Of a stretch of DNA of 64,000 nucleotides, positions 5,191 through 59,951 are shown piece after piece. A program made the position numbers and the translations under genes. Numbering within the stretch: position 1 is the first letter of the stretch; every line of letters begins with the position of its first letter. The notes beneath the pieces are model-generated. The model ran no database searches. It was not told the origin of the DNA and was given only the letters and a program-made list of their open reading frames with translations. The DNA comes from Centroscyllium fabricii (lineage: Eukaryota). The stretch lies in NCBI GenBank assembly GCA_051313645.2, contig JBNRSN020000007.1, positions 253,084,001-253,148,000 of the forward strand, given 5' to 3'.

Positions 5191-5406
<216 letters not shown>

Positions 5407-12454: not shown

Positions 12455-13285
12455 AGAGTCATAGAGTAATACAGCATGGAAAGATGCCCTTCGGCCCATC
12501 GTGTCCACGCCGGCCATCAAACCCTTTTCTGTTCTAATCCCATCTTCCAGCACTTGGTCCGTAGCCTTGTATGTTATGGCATCTCAAGTGCTCGTCCAAA
12601 TGCCTCTTAAATGTTGAAGGTTCCTGCCTCCACCACCCTTCCAGGCAGTGAGTTCCAGACTCCAACCACCCTCTGGGTGAAAAGGTTCCTCCTCAAATCC
12701 CCCCTAAACCTCCCGCCCCTTACCTTGAAACTATGCCCCCTGGTTATTGACCCCTCTACTAGGGGAAAAAGTTCCTTTCTATCTACCCTATCTATGCCCC
12801 TCATAATTTTGTACACCTCAATCAGGTACCCCCTCAGCCTTCTCTGCTCCAAGGAAACCAAACCCAGCCTGTCCAGTCTTTCTTCATAGCTGAAGCGCTC
12901 CAGCTCAGGTAGCATCCTGGTGAATCTCTTCTAGCAATCACATCCTTCCTATAGTGTGGTGACCAGAACTGCACACAGTATTCCAGCTGTGGCCTTACTA
13001 GCGCTTTGTACAGCTCCAGCGTAACCTCCCTGCTCTTATAGTCTATGCCTCGGCTAATGAAGGCAAGTATCCCATATGCCTTTTTAACCACCTTATCCAC
13101 CTGTCCTGCTGCCTTCAGGGATCTATGTACATGCACACCAAGGTCCCTCTTATCCTCTGTCTTTTTTAGGGTCTTACCATTCATTGTGTATTCCCTTACC
13201 TTGATAGTCCTCCCAAAATGCATCACCTCACACTTTTCATGATGAAATTCCATCTGCCCATCTGACCAACCCATCTATATCGCCC
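12455..13285 (-). mobile_element. CR1 LINE 3' fragment
   Basis: ORFs 12834..13274 and 12607..12915 encode frameshifted CR1 RT C-terminus. Confidence 0.9.
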
Positions 13286-13824: not shown

Positions 13825-13921
13825 GTGGGTACTGATGGTATTATGCGGCTCAGCAGTTCCGCCCTAAATAACGAGTTCTTCACCTCTGCCGCTCAGGGAT
13901 GGAAGGAGCGATTAGCAGAAG
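13825..13921 (+). CDS. ASXL1: ASXL1 internal coding exon (DEUBAD)
   Basis: Not in the ORF track. ttattcttctag acceptor, encodes [32 protein letters not shown](G), donor GTATG; 97 nt, in frame with the neighbouring exons. Confidence 0.95.
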
Positions 13922-15320: not shown

Positions 15321-15426
15321 GTGAGTTTACGCCTGAAATGCAGCTTCGGCTACGTCAAGAAATGGAGAAGGAAAAGAAAGTGGAGCTGTGGAAAGAGAAC
15401 TTCTTTGAAGATTATTATGGGCAGAA
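15321..15426 (+). CDS. ASXL1: ASXL1 internal coding exon (end of DEUBAD)
   Basis: tcttgtgcag acceptor, encodes (G)[34 protein letters not shown](K), donor GTAAGC; 106 nt. Confidence 0.95.
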
Positions 15427-15910: not shown

Positions 15911-17912
15911 TCTTAAGGCACAAATAGCTGTTCTTCTGCTTCGCTTTGTATGTTTGAGTTTACATCAAAGTACCCTCCATGGAGGAAAATTCATCACGAA
16001 GTTACGATCGAAGGAACATAACTGTAAAAGCAGTAGTAAATCTTGGCTAGTCTGCTTTCATAAAGTCTCCTTCGAGCAAACCGAGAATTAAGTGCCATCT
16101 CCAGAGATTCAGCGCTGCCATTTTTACACCCCGTACACACAATTGTTAAGGTGCTTGCAGGTGTGTTGAAAGCCCCTCCTTTGGTGTATTGCAAGTGAGC
16201 ATGACTTCGTATTATGCTCTCTCTTCAGCCTTCGACCAACCAGTGGATTTTGTTTTTGCTTGCCAAAAGCTGCACTCCTAATAAATTTCCTGTAAAGGGA
16301 AAAGTTTAAGATGCTCTTTTGAGAAATGATAATTTAAGCAGCTATTGGTATTAAAGATGGATATTTTCAAATCCATATAATGGACCGCTACAGGAAGTTT
16401 GTGCTTTTACCTGTGAAGGGATAGGCAAGTGCTGTCTGTATAAAGCACAAGCCTATCTTTCACCTTGAGTTTCTCACTGTCTGATGCTGATGGCTATATA
16501 TCTGCACCCTCTACTTGATGATGGATCCTCCAGGAGCCAATCTTACAGATGGTGAAAGCATTTTCTGATGAGGTTCTTGAGGCTCCTGCAGTTTATATGC
16601 TTGTATGACAATCTTGTATGCGTATCTCCCTTAATATCATCTACTGAGAATGCAACCTGTTATTTGTTGAGATTTCAAAAACTCCGGATTCTCTTGGGTC
16701 TGAAAGAATGTTATCAAAAGGATTTTGTTCCTTGTGACATTTAAACAGACAGTAAACCCACACTTTGTCCAAAGAATGATTTGATTTTTCGATCAACTGC
16801 ATATCACAAGATGACAACTGCTTAACTGGACTGGGTGGGGGCTGTTGTCTATTACCTGGGTTGACTGTGTAAGGGCTTTATGAAGGTTTCTGCAGAGCAG
16901 CTGTGACCGAGTAATCTATAGTCTAAAAAGAGTAGTAAGCCTGAGGATTGGGAGGATTTAAGAATTCAGCAAAGGAGGGCCAAGATTTGGTAAAGAAAGG
17001 GAAAATAGAATATGAGAGTAAACTAGCAAGAGACATAAAACAGACTAAAAGCTTGTATAAGTATGTAAACAGGAAAAGATTAGCGAAAGTAAACGTGAGA
17101 CCCTTACAGGCTGAGACAGGAGAAATTACAATGGGGAATAAGGAAATGGCAGGGGAATACTTTGTCTTCACAGGAGACGATGCAAAAAACCTTCCCGGAA
17201 ATAGTGGAGAGCCAAGGTTCTAGCGAGAATGAGGAACTGAAAGAAATTAGTATTAGTAAAAAAAAAAATTGTACTGGAGAAATTAATGGGACTGAAAGCT
17301 GATAAATCCCCTGGACCTGATGGCCAACATCCCAGAGTTTTGAAAGAGGTGGCTATAGAGATAGTGGATGCATTAGTTGTCATCATCCAAAATTCAATAG
17401 ATTCTAGAATGGTTCCTGCAGATTGGAAGGTAGCAAATGTGTCCCCACTATTTAAGAAAGGAGGGAGAGAGAAAAAGGGGAACCACAGACCAGTTAGCCT
17501 GACATCAGTAGTAGGGAAAATGCTAGAATCTATTAAGGACACAGTAACAGGGCACTTATAAAATAATAGGATTGGGCAGAGTCAACATGGGTTTAATAAA
17601 GGGAAGTCATGTTTGACAAATCTGTTGGGAGTTTTTTGAGGTTGTAACTTGCAGAATAGATAAGGGGGAACCAGTAGCTATGGGGTATTTGGATTTTCAG
17701 AAGGCATTCATTAAGGTGCCATGTAGGAGGTTATTGAACAAAATTAGGGGTTATGAGATTGGAGGTAACAGACAGAAGACAGAGATTAAGAATAAATGGG
17801 TCATTTTCGGGTTGGCAGGCTGTAACTTGTGGGTTACCGCAAGGATCACTGCTTGGGCTTCAGCTATTCACAATCTATATCGATGATTTGGATGAGGAGA
17901 CCAAATGTAATA

Positions 17913-21454: not shown

Positions 21455-22205
21455 ACTGGGCTTGTCTAAAGAAGAATCAGAACAGCAGACATCAGTACAA
21501 GTGGAAATAGAAAATGAAGCCAGTTCACCTGTATTAGCAGGACCATCTAAACAACCCAGTCCGGTTAAAAAGCAGGATGAGAGACTAAGGAAATGCACTA
21601 GAAGTTCAAAGGTGGACCTCAAATGTAGAGTGAAGCGGACTCTTATTAAGGAAAGAAAGACTGAACTTCCTGAACAAAGTGAGCAAACAGTTCCGTGCAC
21701 TGTTTCTTCTCAAGATACCAGGAGCCAGAAACAACACAATCACGAGGCCAAGGTGTTTCAGGCTGTTAGCTGTGCAGATGACGATCAAATTAGTTTAATT
21801 AACAATGAAGCTAGACCTGAACAGCTAGAAGAAATTCTTCCAAATAAATCTGCCTTAAACTCCAAACCTATATTGCTCACAGAAAGACCTGCAGGAATAC
21901 AATCTCCAGAACATACCAAATCTGATGGCCGTTTAGAATTGACTGATGTGCAACCCGCTGGAATATCCAAGGATCAGGTCACCTGTCTTACTATAAAGAG
22001 CGCTGTTTTGAAAAGTGAGTTAGAGCACAATTCTGGAGAGTCCAAAGACCAAAAGAGAAAGTCTTCCGAGTACAGTGCCTCCACCTCTGGCCCCGAGAAG
22101 AAGCCACGTCTTGAAGATCATCAGTCCTTTCGGACCGCAATTGATAGCTTTCGGACAGAAAAGGAACATCCTACAAAAGAAGAGCCAAAGGTGCCACCTA
22201 TTAGG
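21455..22205 (+). CDS. ASXL1: ASXL1 penultimate coding exon
   Basis: gttgacag acceptor, encodes (K)LGLSKEES...KDQKRKS...[14 protein letters not shown]...[12 protein letters not shown], donor GTATG; 751 nt, ends in phase 0. Part of ORF 21375..22421. Confidence 0.95.
22125..22133 (+). other. ASXL1: Putative +1 programmed ribosomal frameshift site UCC_UUU_CGG
   Basis: In-frame TCC TTT CGG within EDHQSFR, at the position of the ASXL1 UCC_UUU_CGU motif (influenza PA-X type), followed by a long open +1 frame. Confidence 0.75.
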
Positions 22206-25200
22206 GTATGTGCATTTAAAAATGTTGAATCATTACTTGGAAAGCAAATTTTGGTTTCCCGGAATTTGCGGTCAGCGGCGAAGCAAAGGCGTTCGCCGCT
22301 GGCCCCGAAGTATGCTTCGCGCAAAGATCTCGCGATCTTTGTGGCGAGAAGTTCGGCTTTTTGGATGCATAATTCAAATCGACGGAAGTTAATGGGGATT
22401 CCCAGCGAAGAGCTGCTGTGATGTCAACAAACTGTCTAAGCGGCCAATCAAAACGCAGCATTCTCAGACGGCAAACCAGGAAGTGGGTAACCTCCTAAAA
22501 TTCTAACTTTAATAATGTTGGAGAGAACAGGGAAAAGGCAAACCTGAAATAAAGAGGAACAAACTAAGTTTCTTAATTAGAATTTTTATTAAAATGGATA
22601 AATTTGACACTGCACAAAATTAAAATTAGTTTTTCAGGACCATAACCTCTGTTTTGCAATCAAAACGCTGTTAAAACCCCAGTTACACCTAATCGCTTTG
22701 GGTCTAACTTTTAATGGGGTATTTAACAGCGTAATTACTGTGGAAGAGCCGAGGTTTTCGTCCGTTACCATGATTTGAGTGATTTCACTCGGGGGTGGCT
22801 GGGGGAGCACAGCGCAGTCTGTGAGGAGCAGTGAATGACAGACCGCCACTTCAGGATTTCCGCATTAGGCTGTGCATTTGCTAAATCCTGAAGTTGTGGT
22901 CAGTTTCAAAGGTGAAGTGACAGCGAACGCTGCCAGTTCGCCGGCATTAGGACTGCAAATTCTGGACCACTGTTTTTAGATGGAGATTTAAAGCAATTTG
23001 GGATAGTAGCAATGCTGCTTTGTCTTTCTGCGTTAAAGTTTAGTCTAGGAAATGCCATGGTCTACTAGCCAAACCTTGCTTGCCAAAAATGCATTCTTCC
23101 CCTTTCCTACTTCCCTGTGCCAAATAAGAACTTAATTCCTCAATTCTTAAAATGTACAACCCAGTTTTTAAGTTGAGATTTTCTTAAACGTTTCTTCTTT
23201 CCTTTGTCGGTTGTCCCAGAATCTCTTGTATATGTAGTAACCAATAATGGCAAGGAATACTTAAAAAAAATAATCATCATTTTCTGGCATTGTTCACTGA
23301 ACTGAAGTCTATTTTTGCCTTGAGTTATTGCCGAATTTGTGCTCCTCGAGATGACCGTTGAAACAGTTTTGCGGTCAGTGGTGTTCCCAGGTGAGGTACG
23401 GTACAGGTTAGGTGCCAGGTAAAACTCCTATTTCATTTTCCCACAGCTATGCTAGTGTCCCCTGAGTTGGATTATCAGTTTAGTAACTAGCTAATACGGA
23501 ATTATGAGCAGTCCTTTTACTGTGAATTTGCAATTATGACCTGGAGTGACGCTATTTAGACATTTGCAGTCGTTAGGTATCATTATGTTGGCAAGTTTAC
23601 ACTTAAAGTTATGCACTTGACCGTGTACATGTCAACAGTAGCCTGCATTGTACGAGTAAATCTAGGTGAATGGTTTTTTGTGTGTGGGGGATTCCCTGCA
23701 ACTGTTGCCCTCCCTGGGGTCCCATCCCTAATCTCAGGGGGGACCTGATTGAGGTGTACAAAATTATGAGGGGCATAGATAGGGTAGATAGAAAGGAACT
23801 TTTTCCCTTAGTAGAGGGGTCAATAACAAGGGGGCATAGTTTCAAGGTAAGGGGCAGGAGGTTTAGAGGGGATTTGAGGAAGAACCTTTTCACCCAGAGG
23901 GTGGTTGGAATCTGGAACTCACTGCCTGAAAGGGTGGTAGAGGCAGGAACCCTCACAACATTCAAGAAGCATTTAGATGAGCACGTGAAATGCCGTAGCA
24001 TTCAAGGCTACGAACCAAATGCAGAAAAATGGGATTAGAATAGACCGGGCTTGATGGCCGGCGTGGACGCAATGGGCCGAAGGGCCTCTTTGTGTGCTTT
24101 ATAACTCTGAGAGATACGACTCTGAAAGATACTATCAGCAAGCCAATAGAAAACAGTACCATCATTGCAGAAAGCATTTTTATTGTTATTCAGCAATGGA
24201 AATAACATGCTGGTAAGTCTGCGCACATTGAAAATGCCAGAATTCTGGAGACATTATGCTTCAAGCGCTTGGTTTGCGTGGTCCCAGGCAAATCTGCTGA
24301 ATCCAGATTGAAAACCCATCATCTAGGAAATTCAAAAGGAAAGACATTTTTGGTTCTGAGTCCGAATGTTGGAGGTCCAAGCCCCGCTGTGAACTTGAGT
24401 ACACAAGTACACTGATGTTCCAGTGTAGTAATGAGAGTGCGCTGTCTTTTAGATGAGATGTCCCTGTTGCTTGTTTTGGTGGTTCAGGTAGACCTAAAAG
24501 ATCCCATGATGATACTTAACAAAAGAGCAGAGTTTTCTCCTGGTGTCCTGACCAACGTTCCTCCCTCTGCCAACAGAACCTTAAAAAAAAAATCAAAGGT
24601 CATTCATGTGCTGTTTGTGGTACCTTGGGTTGAAATTGTTCAGTTTGCCAACATAACAAAGTTGTTAAGTGCTTTAGAAACGCAGAGGATAGGAGCAGGA
24701 GTAGGCCATTCGGCCCTTCAAGCCTGCTCTGCCATTTTGATGAGATCACGGCTGATCATCCAAACCCAGCACCCCCTCCCACCCTCTCCCCATATCGCCC
24801 GACACCCCCAGCTCTAAGAATTATTATCTCACACACATACTCATAGGCAATTTTTAGTATCTCCAATTCACCTAACCTGCGTGTCTTTGGTGCTGCTAAG
24901 GATCTGATAAGGTGCTGCATAAATGCAAGTTCTTGCTATCTGGAGCTGGTTTTGTAGTTACCTTGGGTTGTACTGTTGTTGTTTTATTTAGAACAGGAAG
25001 TCTTCCTTTTTATTCCTGCTTTTCTGTTGATGTATATTCTGTTGGTAAACCGCAGTAGCATGGAGAGAGCAGACATCTGTACTTTTGTTCCTGAGTGTAA
25101 ACTACAGGAACATACAGGGATATTAAATTGCAGCTTGCCAGTGATAAAATGAGTTTTGTTTGCGCGTAAAATGTGACTTTGTTTTGAGGAGACGCCTCCA

Positions 25201-25872
25201 AATCATCATAACCTGCCTTTTCTCGTTACTGATGCTGACTGACCTGTTGTGTATTTCCAGCGTTTTCTGTTTTGATTTTAGATGTCCATTCATAGTTTTA
25301 TTCTACTGTGTTAGTGTTTTGAAATTATTGGCAAAAGTACAGAAGGACAAATGTCTCCAGAACCTGGTCCCCATCCCCAAATATTGCACAAAGTATATAA
25401 CAAGGTTGCTGCCTGTGTTGTAAATCCTCTTTCACAAAAGCATTCCATAGTAAATTTGGATTATTCTGCTTACAGATTCAACTCTCAAGAATCAAACCTC
25501 CATGGGTTGTCAAAGGGCAGCCAACCTATCAGATATGCCCCAGGATCGTCACTACGGTTGGAACAGTCAGCAGAGAAAGGACAGGTGCCAGGACACTTGC
25601 AGATATCAAAGCCCGTGCTCAGCAAGCTCGGGCACAAAGGGAGGCTGCAGCAGCTGCAGCTGCCAATGTTACAGTGGAGGGAGGGGGCGGGTGTAGTGGT
25701 GGTAATGGGCCAGGGGGCACTGATTCCCCCGGACAGGCCGACGGAAAGACAAAAGCTTTTGAACAAACTCCGGCAAAACATCAGTACAGAGCACAGCTAT
25801 TCCAAACCTGCGCAGCAGATGAACCAGAAAAATCCAGCGATGGAGAGAATAGTATTAAGCAAGGTGTTATAA
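22132..25872 (+). CDS. ASXL1: Overlapping +1 transframe ORF (ASXL1-TF), spliced 22132-22205 + 25476-25872
   Basis: [25 protein letters not shown] joined to [10 protein letters not shown]...STEHSYSKP...VLSKVL*; 156 codons with no stop across the splice junction; EHSY at 25789-25800. Confidence 0.75.
22253..22968. mobile_element. Non-autonomous TIR element (Harbinger-like)
   Basis: CCGGAATTTGCGGTC near the left end versus GACTGCAAATTCTGG at the right end; GC-rich ends with an AT-rich core. Confidence 0.6.
23733..24112 (+). mobile_element. CR1 LINE 3' end
   Basis: [25 protein letters not shown]..., nearly identical to the 12455-13285 subfamily. Confidence 0.9.
24350..24932 (+). mobile_element. 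Degenerate DeuSINE interrupted by an antisense V-SINE fragment (about 24674-24890)
   Basis: GTCTTTTAGATGAGATG..AAAAGATCCCATG and ATAAATGCAAGT end, flanking a reversed SINE tail. Confidence 0.55.
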
Positions 25873-28808
25873 TCGAGGAATGCGTGGAAAGCAATCTAGT
25901 TGACACAACACAGCAAAGTAAATTGGTGACAGCAGATGATATCCAGCAAACTGAATTGGGAGGTGATGCCGGTTACACTATAATTAGCAGTAAATCACCA
26001 GATTTATTAGTGGATGTGCAAGAGTGCAACCAAGTCACTGTTTCTCAACTGAGTGACACGGTGGTTTCTGATGGACAGGCTAACGGTGGTGAAACTGCAC
26101 TTCTCCAAGATGATTCACCCCCTGAAGCACTGGAATTGCCTGCAGACAGAGACAATAGTTATACAGAATCCAGCAAAAATCTTAAATGTGAAACTGTAAT
26201 CCTTTCAATTGCTGAGACTGACAATCCCCTGCTTCTACCCGGTGATCAAACCCAGAAGTCTGGTCTAAAAGATAAAACCACCAGCATTGAAGAACCTCTT
26301 CCAAAATATGTTTTCTCTGGAACAGTAATTGCAGAAAATAAGGATGCTGCAGTCATCAACACTATGGACATCCCTGTTGTAGAGGTGAAAACTGCAGCAA
26401 CTGATTCATTACCAAGTAATGACAGTGAAACTAAAGCAAACACTACAGATGTTTTGTCAACCCAACTATCAGTTGAATTTCCAGAAACTGATTCTTGTGA
26501 GCAAGAGGTTAATAGATGCACCATAGAGGCAATTGGATCTTCATTGATCCGTAAAGTAACTTGCTCTCCAACTTTGCAGACACATGAGGAAAAGGAGAGT
26601 GACTGTGTTGAATTAAACATACATAATCAGTTAGAAACAAGCACACTGCTGGAGACGTCAAATGAACCACGTGTTGCAGAGAAACAACTGACCTCTGTAA
26701 TAGTGTCGACGTGCTCGAATAAAGATCCCAGCCATTCATTAGCACAAAAACTTTCTCTCAAGTCTGAGAGGCTTGAAAAGCAGCTTGACTGTCCTGCTTC
26801 TGTTGACGCAGAAGAATGTGTGAAAGAACATCTTATAAAACAAGAGCAGGCAATGGCAGATGGCGGGCACCAATCGATGGAAGCTGGCGTTGCTGTATTA
26901 GACGATGCCTTTGAGCAGCTAACCAGCAAAAGGCAGCAAAACTGTGGAAGTGACATTAATAAGAATGGCTTGTATTATAAGACTGAAATAAATAGCCAGC
27001 TGTCTGATGAAAGTTGTGTACAACCCACAAATGAAAGAATATCTAAAGATGACAGAGCCCCTGTTTGTTCTGAAACTGGTGTAATTGTATTAAGTCCTGA
27101 TGCCTGCAAAGGGACTGATAATGGTGATCAGCACAAACAGATACATTTGTCCGAGGACGATCAGCTGCAAAAGGATGAAAGACCGAATGAGTGCCAGAAC
27201 CACAAGCCTGAAATCTTGCATAATTTAAATCAAACTGACTCTTTGCTACATCCAAGTGTTGAGGGGCCGAAAAGGGTTGGTAATTTTAATCGACCACTGT
27301 CATCAGTTGAAGTCAACAACCCACTAGTCACACAGTTACTTCAGGGCAGTCTTCCTTTAGAGAAGGTTTTACCACAATCTCATTCTGGTACCAAATTGGA
27401 GATAACTAGACTGCTTGTGCCACCTCCAATGCCTTCTGAGAGCCCGCCAGCTAAGCAGGAAAGAAATTTCAGTCAGTCGACTATTGATCATCTTGCACAA
27501 ACAACTGATCTCAAAAGCATAATCAGTGGAGTGCACAGTGGAATCAAATTAGCTGATTATCATTTGCATAAAATATTGTCCGGAGATTTTAGAGAGCTGT
27601 CTCAAAAACGACTAGAGCAGATGAAATCAAGCGTTTTGCAATCCAATAAGCATTATGTGGAATCTCAGATGGTCTTGGACAGAGATTGTAAAAGTCTAGG
27701 AGAAGGACCAGTTTTACAGGAGCAGTTAAATAGAACACCAGTTCTTTCTAGGCCTGTTGAAGAGTCTGGGCCAACAACACACAAAATAACCCAGGCTGCT
27801 TGCAGTTTTGAAGATGGCAACAAAGAACTAATGAATATCTCTTCTGGAAATACGCAAAGTCCCAATTTGCACAATCCTGTAATGAGAAGCATGCCTGAAA
27901 CATTAAAGCAAATCAGTAGCTCTACAGTGTCTGGCTATTACATTCCAAACACACCAAGCTTTTGTAAAAGTCTGGAGAGCCAGAACACTATTTTTGGTTC
28001 AGTAATAGCAAAGGCTTGCAGTGGGATGCCAGGGAGGCAGAAGGTGAACCATGGTTATTTGCATAACACTGTAGTTGTGCAAAATGATGGAAGCTGTGGA
28101 ACAACAGAAGTAATTAAGATTCAGTCAAAGGGTTCTGTTATTGAGCATGTACCAGTCATTGCCCAAACTTCACCAGAAAGGAATTTAATTGGTATGGACA
28201 GCATGCCAAATGTAAGAAGGGATTGGTTTCCTAAACTGCATGAAAGCTTTAAAGTAATCAAAACTGAAAATATTCCCACATGCAGGGGAATTAACAAAAA
28301 TCAAGACATCATTGGTATAAAGGACGGTGCATACATTCCATTTGATTCCAAAGACAAATTATACGTTGGACCAATAAAGATGGACTGCAACATTGGAAAG
28401 GTTATGAAAGAGACCGGTCTACAATTTCAGCATTCGTCCGAACATTCTCTCCTCAATTCCCAGCTCAGTATTCAGCAGCAGTTATACGGCAAGCTTCCTA
28501 AACTTTCTTTCAGTACCACAGGATTTAGCCATATCACTAACACATCAGTTTCTGAACTCTCTATGGGCAGCTTTCCAGCATCCCTTGCTGGAAGTATGAT
28601 GTCACTGAGTCAGAAGGCAAACTTTGGTAACCATAATTCTGCAGTTCCTGCTCAGACATTTGCTGAAAGCAGTGGTGTCAATGAAATGACGTTTAAATGT
28701 TCTTGCAGACTAAAGGCCATGATCATGTGCAAAGGATGTGGAGCATTTTGCCATGATGATTGTATAGGCCCATCTAAACTTTGTGTATCATGTCTTGTGG
28801 TGAGATAG
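25476..28808 (+). CDS. ASXL1: ASXL1 terminal coding exon (ASXM1, ASXM2, PHD finger)
   Basis: gcttacag acceptor; [24 protein letters not shown]...[12 protein letters not shown] (ASXM1); [11 protein letters not shown] (ASXM2, LVTQLL at 27324-27341); [36 protein letters not shown] (PHD from 28698). 1110 codons plus stop. Confidence 0.97.
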
Positions 28809-59748: not shown

Positions 59749-59951
59749 TCAATTCTGTTGTAAAATGAGGTTTTCCAGTTCATCTGCGGAGCGGAGGAGG
59801 AAGGCTGCTGACTCTCTGTAGCCAGCGATGAGCTGCCGGACCGCGTTAATTTCTGTTGGGCTGAGCTGTGCTGCTGGTACACTCCTGCTGTTGTTTGTGT
59901 TGGATGAAGTCGAGTTTGCGGCCAGTGCCTTCATGCTGAGATCAGTTGGAC
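59749..59951 (-). CDS. NOL4L: NOL4L terminal coding exon
   Basis: tttcag acceptor (59952-59954 on the - strand); (G)[66 protein letters not shown], the NOL4/NOL4L C-terminus. SRxVPxAQLSP, RQLIAG and ASXL1 adjacency favour NOL4L. Confidence 0.88.

Follow-up and report, generated by a model that had tools for sequence, protein, structure and literature searches.

The question raised by this locus is whether a vertebrate gene yields a second, shortened protein from a shifted reading frame and, if so, by what route and from what origin. The window, a stretch of 64,000 nucleotides from the shark Centroscyllium fabricii (assembly GCA_051313645.2, contig JBNRSN020000007.1, positions 253,084,001 to 253,148,000 of the forward strand), carries a gene identified as ASXL1 because its best matches are chondrichthyan ASXL1 proteins (94% and below), with DEUBAD exons upstream and a PHD domain at the end. 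An earlier note, made from the sequence alone, had proposed that a +1 open reading frame (ORF) spanning the last splice junction of this gene encodes a hidden protein reached by ribosomal frameshifting. This ORF is the one that Dinan, Atkins and Firth (2017) described as ASXL1-TF, reporting its shift site in 200 species (PMC5644247; this and the other publications named here are cited from excerpts); gene, site, frame and the motif EHSY are the same. The feature is a further member of that published system and is not new, because the site UCC_UUU_CGG and a 162-codon TF had already been reported in the ghostshark Callorhinchus milii, the sole species published with that nonamer in ASXL1. The CGG codon, which the earlier note had offered as a variant kept by this shark, is present as claimed, but had already been published for a cartilaginous fish. 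Beyond the published system, the present analysis adds evidence from the paralogues ASXL3 and ASXL2, and a defined rival explanation by splicing.

The frame opens after TAG at 22021-22023, crosses the 22205/25476 junction and ends at TAA, all at the positions originally proposed, and its two parts (Table 1) amount to 579 nucleotides, or 192 codons and the stop. Its first AUG is indeed at 25666, and the zero frame carries TCC TTT CGG where it was said to, 81 nucleotides before the donor; a slip from UUU to UUC would add the 156 residues first calculated (157 codons from the shifted UUC to the stop), and the junction peptide deduced earlier agrees with the translations. The junction is present in contigs of four out of four runs, which represent four related organisms and four studies; the 'RNA?' mark on these runs is a guess, none of the listed runs being recorded as RNA. 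No differences from the shark were found at 22094-22204, which includes the shift site, in the contig of one of these organisms (organism B). A genomic ORF track splits the frame, as had been warned, into stop-to-stop ORFs at 22024-22392 and 25315-25872. In the intron as well, 53 codons (25315-25475) are open in the TF frame, with an AUG at 25351, likely by chance. The motif EHSY, which the earlier note had missed, conforms to EH[N/S]Y, conserved at the C-terminus of ASXL-TF, and to [D/E]HxY, defined as an HCF-1-binding motif (PMC5644247). Gene identity, site, open frame, splice junction and EHSY are all observed, so that the claim that this shark keeps the shift system holds for these elements; frameshifting itself is only predicted in ASXL1.

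When the zero-frame protein was held fixed and synonymous codons were resampled, the post-shift segment was free of stops in 27 of 20,000 trials, a +1 run of at least 192 codons appeared anywhere in 3 of 2,000, and site, frame and motif occurred jointly in 1 of 20,000; this null treats codons as independent, and its P values are therefore guides rather than exact probabilities. The next longest alternative frames in the two last exons have 63 codons (+1) and 73 codons (+2), so no comparable frame exists, as first stated. The ORF has the published features of ASXL1-TF (the gene, a site near the end of the penultimate exon, an ORF of roughly 125-165 codons, EH[N/S]Y), and the site fits the zero-frame motif YCC_UUU_CG of the PA-X and PLEKHM2 class. 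With the ghostshark ASXL1-TF it shares the position of the site, the nonamer, the +1 ORF over the last junction and the C-terminal motif; the ghostshark TF, as given in the published supplement, agrees with it in the first ten residues, in EHSY and in the final four. The differences are that the present TF has 157 codons and comes from a true shark, not a chimaera, Callorhinchus being the only one found of six chondrichthyan names sought in that supplement.

The probable route is a low-level +1 slip in the P site at UCC_UUU_CGG without a stimulatory structure, giving a shortened ASXL1-TF with an HCF-1-type motif. The slipping, its abundance and the binding of HCF-1 are proposed by analogy with influenza A PA-X, with PLEKHM2 and with the account of Dinan et al. 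tRNA-Phe would move its pairing in the P site from UUU to UUC while the A site, with its CGG codon, is unoccupied, in about 1% of ribosomes if the analogy holds, and the shifted ribosome would read 156 new residues over the last junction and stop at 25872; since this stop lies in the last exon, no nonsense-mediated decay would be expected. The predicted protein of about 760 residues (607 in the numbering of the orthologue P0123, plus 156) would keep HARE-HTH and DEUBAD, and would lose ASXM2, PHD and most of ASXM1; its EHSY would let it link BAP1 with HCF-1. The earlier note had the product lacking all of ASXM1, ASXM2 and PHD; this is right for the last two, but of ASXM1 only the greater part would be lost; Dinan et al. 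place the shift within the ASXM1 region and name only ASXM2 and PHD as lost (PMC5644247). The likeness once drawn to leukaemia truncations needs a similar qualification, in that the predicted product, unlike most such truncations, gains an HCF-1 motif.

PLEKHM2-FS is an experimentally shown parallel in that the same nonamer UCC_UUU_CGG slips at about 1.3%, with shift-site peptides found by mass spectrometry and no structure required (PMC11451614, PMC12551717). It shares with shark ASXL1 the nonamer, an internal overlapping ORF and the freedom from structure, but it is an unrelated gene whose new tail is a helix, whereas the tail of shark ASXL1-TF is a disordered linker with a short motif. No RNA structure was found 3' of the sites of the three shark paralogues (z = 1.12, 0.09 and -0.96, the first for ASXL1). 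With PA-X (UCC_UUU_CGU) the site shares the UUU_C slip in the P site and UCC in the E site, but has CGG as its A-site codon. A second slip-like site in the zero frame, AGC_UUU_CGG, was absent from the earlier note; its UUU_CGG (22149-22154) follows the first by 21 nucleotides, SFR recurs there in all printed chondrichthyan ASXL1 rows, and no mention of it was found in the excerpts of Dinan et al. It is predicted to be the weaker of the two; in PA-X, changing UCC to AGC in the E site lowers shifting by 40-70% without abolishing it (PMC3498833). The control UCC_UUC_AGA, suggested earlier for a reporter assay, would leave this second UUU_CGG intact, and a drop in ribosome-profiling density after the stop, also suggested, is unlikely to reveal a shift of 1%.

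Conservation was examined in the DNA of relatives and in homologous proteins. Forty of 464 differences in relatives were available for inspection, of which 11 were intronic and dropped and 29 were classed; gaps in exons were of 0 or 3 letters. Ten of the listed differences fall in TF, and within this incomplete set none creates a +1 stop and none touches EHSY. Homologue counts rest on the best 120 of 687, 532 and 289 matches, with groups assigned from organism names; the searches covered longer proteins, short TF or exon-skipping isoforms lying outside their range, and a protein footprint cannot reveal codons. Among the best ASXL1 matches listed, the zero-frame SFR of the site is present in 120 of 120 and [RG][TA]QL, the footprint of EH[N/S]Y, in 114 of 120. 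A forced-stop test on proteins (Met followed by K, N, T, I or M, which always gives a +1 TGA) found zero matches in every group; it was rejected because zero was also found in the TF-negative ASXL3 of bony vertebrates and ASXL2 of teleosts, so that it does not discriminate.

The genome holds three ASXL copies, the other two being ASXL3 (95% to a named ASXL3) and ASXL2 (96%). ASXL3 has been published as without a long +1 ORF and without EHxY (PMC5644247), and bony-vertebrate ASXL3 proteins lack both footprints; the shark ASXL3, in contrast, has UCC_UUU_CGG at the same distance from the donor as in ASXL1, an open +1 frame of 134 codons over the last junction (placed from splice signals and annotated orthologues) and EHNY. 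In the codon null, site, open frame and motif have P = 0.023, 0.016 and 0.068; the three together occurred in 0 of 20,000 trials, and in 3 of 20,000 if only TTT_CG was required. TTTCGGAC is identical in all three paralogues at the aligned position, and EH[N/S]Y recurs in the three over differing zero-frame residues. Shared ancestry alone does not explain the ASXL3 features, because the codons of the control domains PHD, ASXH and ASXM2 are at synonymous saturation between paralogues (53 of 132 identical, against 48 expected). In a DNA run of a close relative, six differences were found in ASXL3, and none of the five listed creates a +1 stop. Among bony vertebrates [RG][TA]QL was found in 0 and SFR in 1 of 103 ASXL3 proteins scored (104 listed); their RAHL would permit EH[T/I]Y, so that only EH[N/S]Y is excluded. 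Chondrichthyan ASXL3 keeps [RG][TA]QL in 13 of the 16 listed. Three 'RNA?' runs gave only ASXL1 cross-matches or nothing for ASXL3, which has no bearing on expression. The ASXL3-TF of this shark may still function as a gene product or may be a relic in slow decay, and either state bears on the ancestral condition. The two last exons of ASXL3 contain further +1 runs of 184 and 106 codons (L008, G000:C822) and those of ASXL2 another of 155, probably compositional.

For ASXL2, a TF has been published with a proposed -2 site, RG_GUC_UCU (PMC5644247). The shark gene shares this site in the form AG_GUC_UCU, together with the long +1 ORF and EHNY, and differs in an additional UUA_UUU_CGG at the position homologous to the ASXL1 site, unreported in the excerpts of that paper, from which the +1 frame runs without a stop for 178 codons, past EHNY. 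The codon null gives P = 0.18 for TTT_CG and P = 0.056 for the open stretch as far as the -2 site. All 12 readable chondrichthyan ASXL2 proteins (14 listed) have xFR, which in Callorhinchus is SFR; F-[RQ] is present in 70 of 72 scored from lobe-finned fish and tetrapods (76 listed), and in 0 of 23 scored from teleosts (26 listed), whose TF is published as lost and of which 20 of 23 keep the QVS encoded under the -2 site. Judged from these protein sequences, Phe at the site appears to track the published presence or loss of TF. The ASXL2 of the tuatara (P0330) has the upstream SFR without the QVS of the -2 site and without [RG][TA]QL, an exception that recalls the lizard exception in the excerpts of Dinan et al. 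(PMC5644247).

That ASXL2 and ASXL3 of this shark carry the same site, frame and motif suggests a system older than the duplications that gave rise to the paralogues. It is, on balance, somewhat favoured that the single ancestral ASXL gene already had, ahead of the vertebrate genome duplications, one +1 system consisting of an xxx_UUU_CG site, an open +1 frame and an HCF-1 motif, and that the shark keeps it in all three paralogues, including an ASXL3-TF whose existence had been denied. The system would then have been lost in bony-vertebrate ASXL3 and teleost ASXL2 and would be eroding in the ASXL3 of rays and many sharks, and the ancestral, perhaps working, site of ASXL2 would be UUU_C, not the -2 site RG_GUC_UCU.

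Several findings weigh against the slip, its product or its single origin. The 10 listed TF differences show no clear two-frame pattern, five altering only the +1 residue, four only the zero-frame residue and one neither. Synonymous constraint over TF, reported as strong for tetrapods and teleosts (PMC5644247), is a trend only between the shark paralogues (44 of 90 identical codons versus 53 of 132, p = 0.12), and the same test on the other paralogue pairs gave p = 0.055 and 0.077, none significant. Retention of SFR could serve the zero-frame protein. CGG halves the shifting of PA-X relative to CGU (PMC3498833), ASXL1 frameshifting was called unvalidated in 2025 (PMC12551717), and both the slip and the TF protein in this shark are predictions from sequence. 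As to origin, the correspondence between loss of the site and loss of TF comes from two independent losses only. Among 14 readable chondrichthyan ASXL3 proteins (16 listed), SFR is present in only three (sawshark, catshark and ghostshark); six have F-Q, compatible with UUU_C but not with CG, and five batoids have lost the Phe. Four of the five listed ASXL3-TF differences, all from one relative, alter the +1 residue and leave the zero-frame protein unchanged. Finally, skipping of an exon gives access to the TF frame and EHSY with no slip needed, and a 2026 preprint finds splicing more parsimonious than two unrelated frameshift mechanisms (10.64898/2026.05.28.727796).

That TF is made mainly by alternative splicing is the strongest rival, and is considered unlikely. 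Skipping of the 751-nucleotide penultimate exon, whose entry phase is 2 and exit phase 0, would splice the DEUBAD exon ending at 15426 (phase 2) directly to the last exon, which would then be read in the +1 frame; by frame arithmetic the predicted product, of about 510 residues (DEUBAD, 131 TF residues and EHSY), stays open past EHSY as far as 25872. In ASXL2 and ASXL3 the acceptor of the penultimate exon has the same phase, so that a single splice event would suffice for all three paralogues, and the preprint favours splicing, with no route named in its excerpts. Skipping is ranked second to the slip because it leaves unexplained a codon-exact UCC_UUU_CG in 200 species and in shark ASXL3; the open +1 frame upstream of the ASXL2 donor (P = 0.086) is also left unexplained. 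Cryptic acceptors in the open stretch are mostly poor in pyrimidines (12 AG sites, of which two equal or exceed the 0.62 of the true acceptors), and the excerpts of Dinan et al. report no annotated isoform giving access to TF (PMC5644247). Skipping of exon 12 into TF was mentioned neither in those excerpts nor in the literature searched, which also yielded no publication on TF in ASXL3 and left most subscription papers outside. The slip and splice routes may both operate.

Still less likely is that no TF protein matters, the conserved codons reflecting constraint on RNA or on the zero frame (splicing or protein-binding elements, ASXM1 residues) and the open frame being a by-product. The region does encode a well-conserved segment of ASXM1, no Pfam domain was found on the three TF peptides, and CGGAC in this region presumably fits the DRACH consensus for N6-methyladenosine. 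A reviewer of Dinan et al. raised the same view (PMC5644247). Against it stand the rarity of the open frame and of the joint features when the protein is fixed, the recurrence of EH[N/S]Y over differing zero-frame residues, and the two-frame selection in ASXL1 and ASXL2, seen in the ratio of nonsynonymous to synonymous substitution, and the human peptide cited in the 2026 preprint (10.64898/2026.05.28.727796). A hidden Markov model of the three TF last-exon peptides found one match among 1.84 billion representatives, a repetitive sea-urchin protein judged spurious and counted as evidence neither way. Production of TF as a separate small protein from an internal start is most improbable: AUG 25666 (in the exon) and AUG 25351 (in the intron, on a short transcript) are both in the +1 frame upstream of EHSY, but the former leaves two thirds of the ORF unexplained, the latter is spliced out in the contigs seen, and no conserved AUG is reported in the excerpts of Dinan et al. 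(PMC5644247).

Table 1. Features of the ASXL1 locus in the window and of the corresponding sites in ASXL3 and ASXL2 (window coordinates unless a contig or locus is given)
Feature	Position	Strand	Remarks
DEUBAD exon 1, start of ASXH/DEUBAD (BAP1-binding)	5218..5385	+	PF13919 match at G000:C1266:253089218; tblastn 100% to orthologues; donor read
DEUBAD exon 2	13825..13921	+	
DEUBAD exon 3	15321..15426	+	ends in phase 2
Penultimate exon	21455..22205	+	751 nucleotides (3n+1); a skip would set the last exon in the +1 (TF) frame
TF ORF, 5' part	22024..22205	+	portion after 22129 would be read after a slip
Predicted +1 shift site UCC_UUU_CGG, zero frame	22125..22133	+	sole TCCTTTCG on the + strand of the window
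Second slip-like site AGC_UUU_CGG, in frame	22146..22154	+	predicted weaker
Last intron, GT..AG	22206..25475	+	3270 nucleotides; repeat fragments inside
Last coding exon, zero frame	25476..28808	+	PHD at about 28680-28799
TF ORF, 3' part, +1 frame	25476..25872	+	stop TAA 25870-25872
EHSY, +1 frame, HCF-1-binding motif of ASXL-TF	25789..25800	+	
ASXL3 slip-like site UCC_UUU_CGG	G000:C822:109762654-62 (L009:5255-5263)		81 nucleotides before donor
ASXL3 +1 frame over last junction	L002:1502-1828 (G000:C822)		134 open codons; EHNY at L002:1808-1819
ASXL2 UUA_UUU_CGG and published -2 site	L011:7256-7264, L003:1496-1960 (G000:C1)		UUA_UUU_CGG at homologous position

The earlier exons of ASXL1 sit upstream of the window. 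Fragments whose translations resemble reverse-transcriptase or LINE-type (long interspersed nuclear element) repeats occur at 1441-2278, 12607-13274, 17241-17561 and 23670-24038, and a short repeat family has several copies in the last intron and downstream. On the minus strand, 59749-59910 is taken to be the last coding exon of a tail-to-tail neighbour resembling the C-terminus of NOL4/NOL4L; for this stretch Atlas gave only a chordate 'hypothetical protein' cluster (0.97).

Among vertebrate genes, candidate conserved frameshifts are very few, and ASXL1-TF is one. It is similar to the truncated ASXL1 seen in myeloid cancer and in Bohring-Opitz syndrome, and the literature disagrees about the route by which it is expressed. 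The shark paralogues provide a natural test set of three equivalently placed cassettes, two with UCC and one with UUA in the E site, along with naturally decayed forms (F-Q, or no Phe) and a splice alternative that predicts different peptides. If the single origin is true, the shift site proposed for human ASXL2 would need re-examination, the objection to ASXL frameshifting that it requires two unrelated mechanisms would fall, and an HCF-1-binding short form would be an ancestral output of the ASXL genes.

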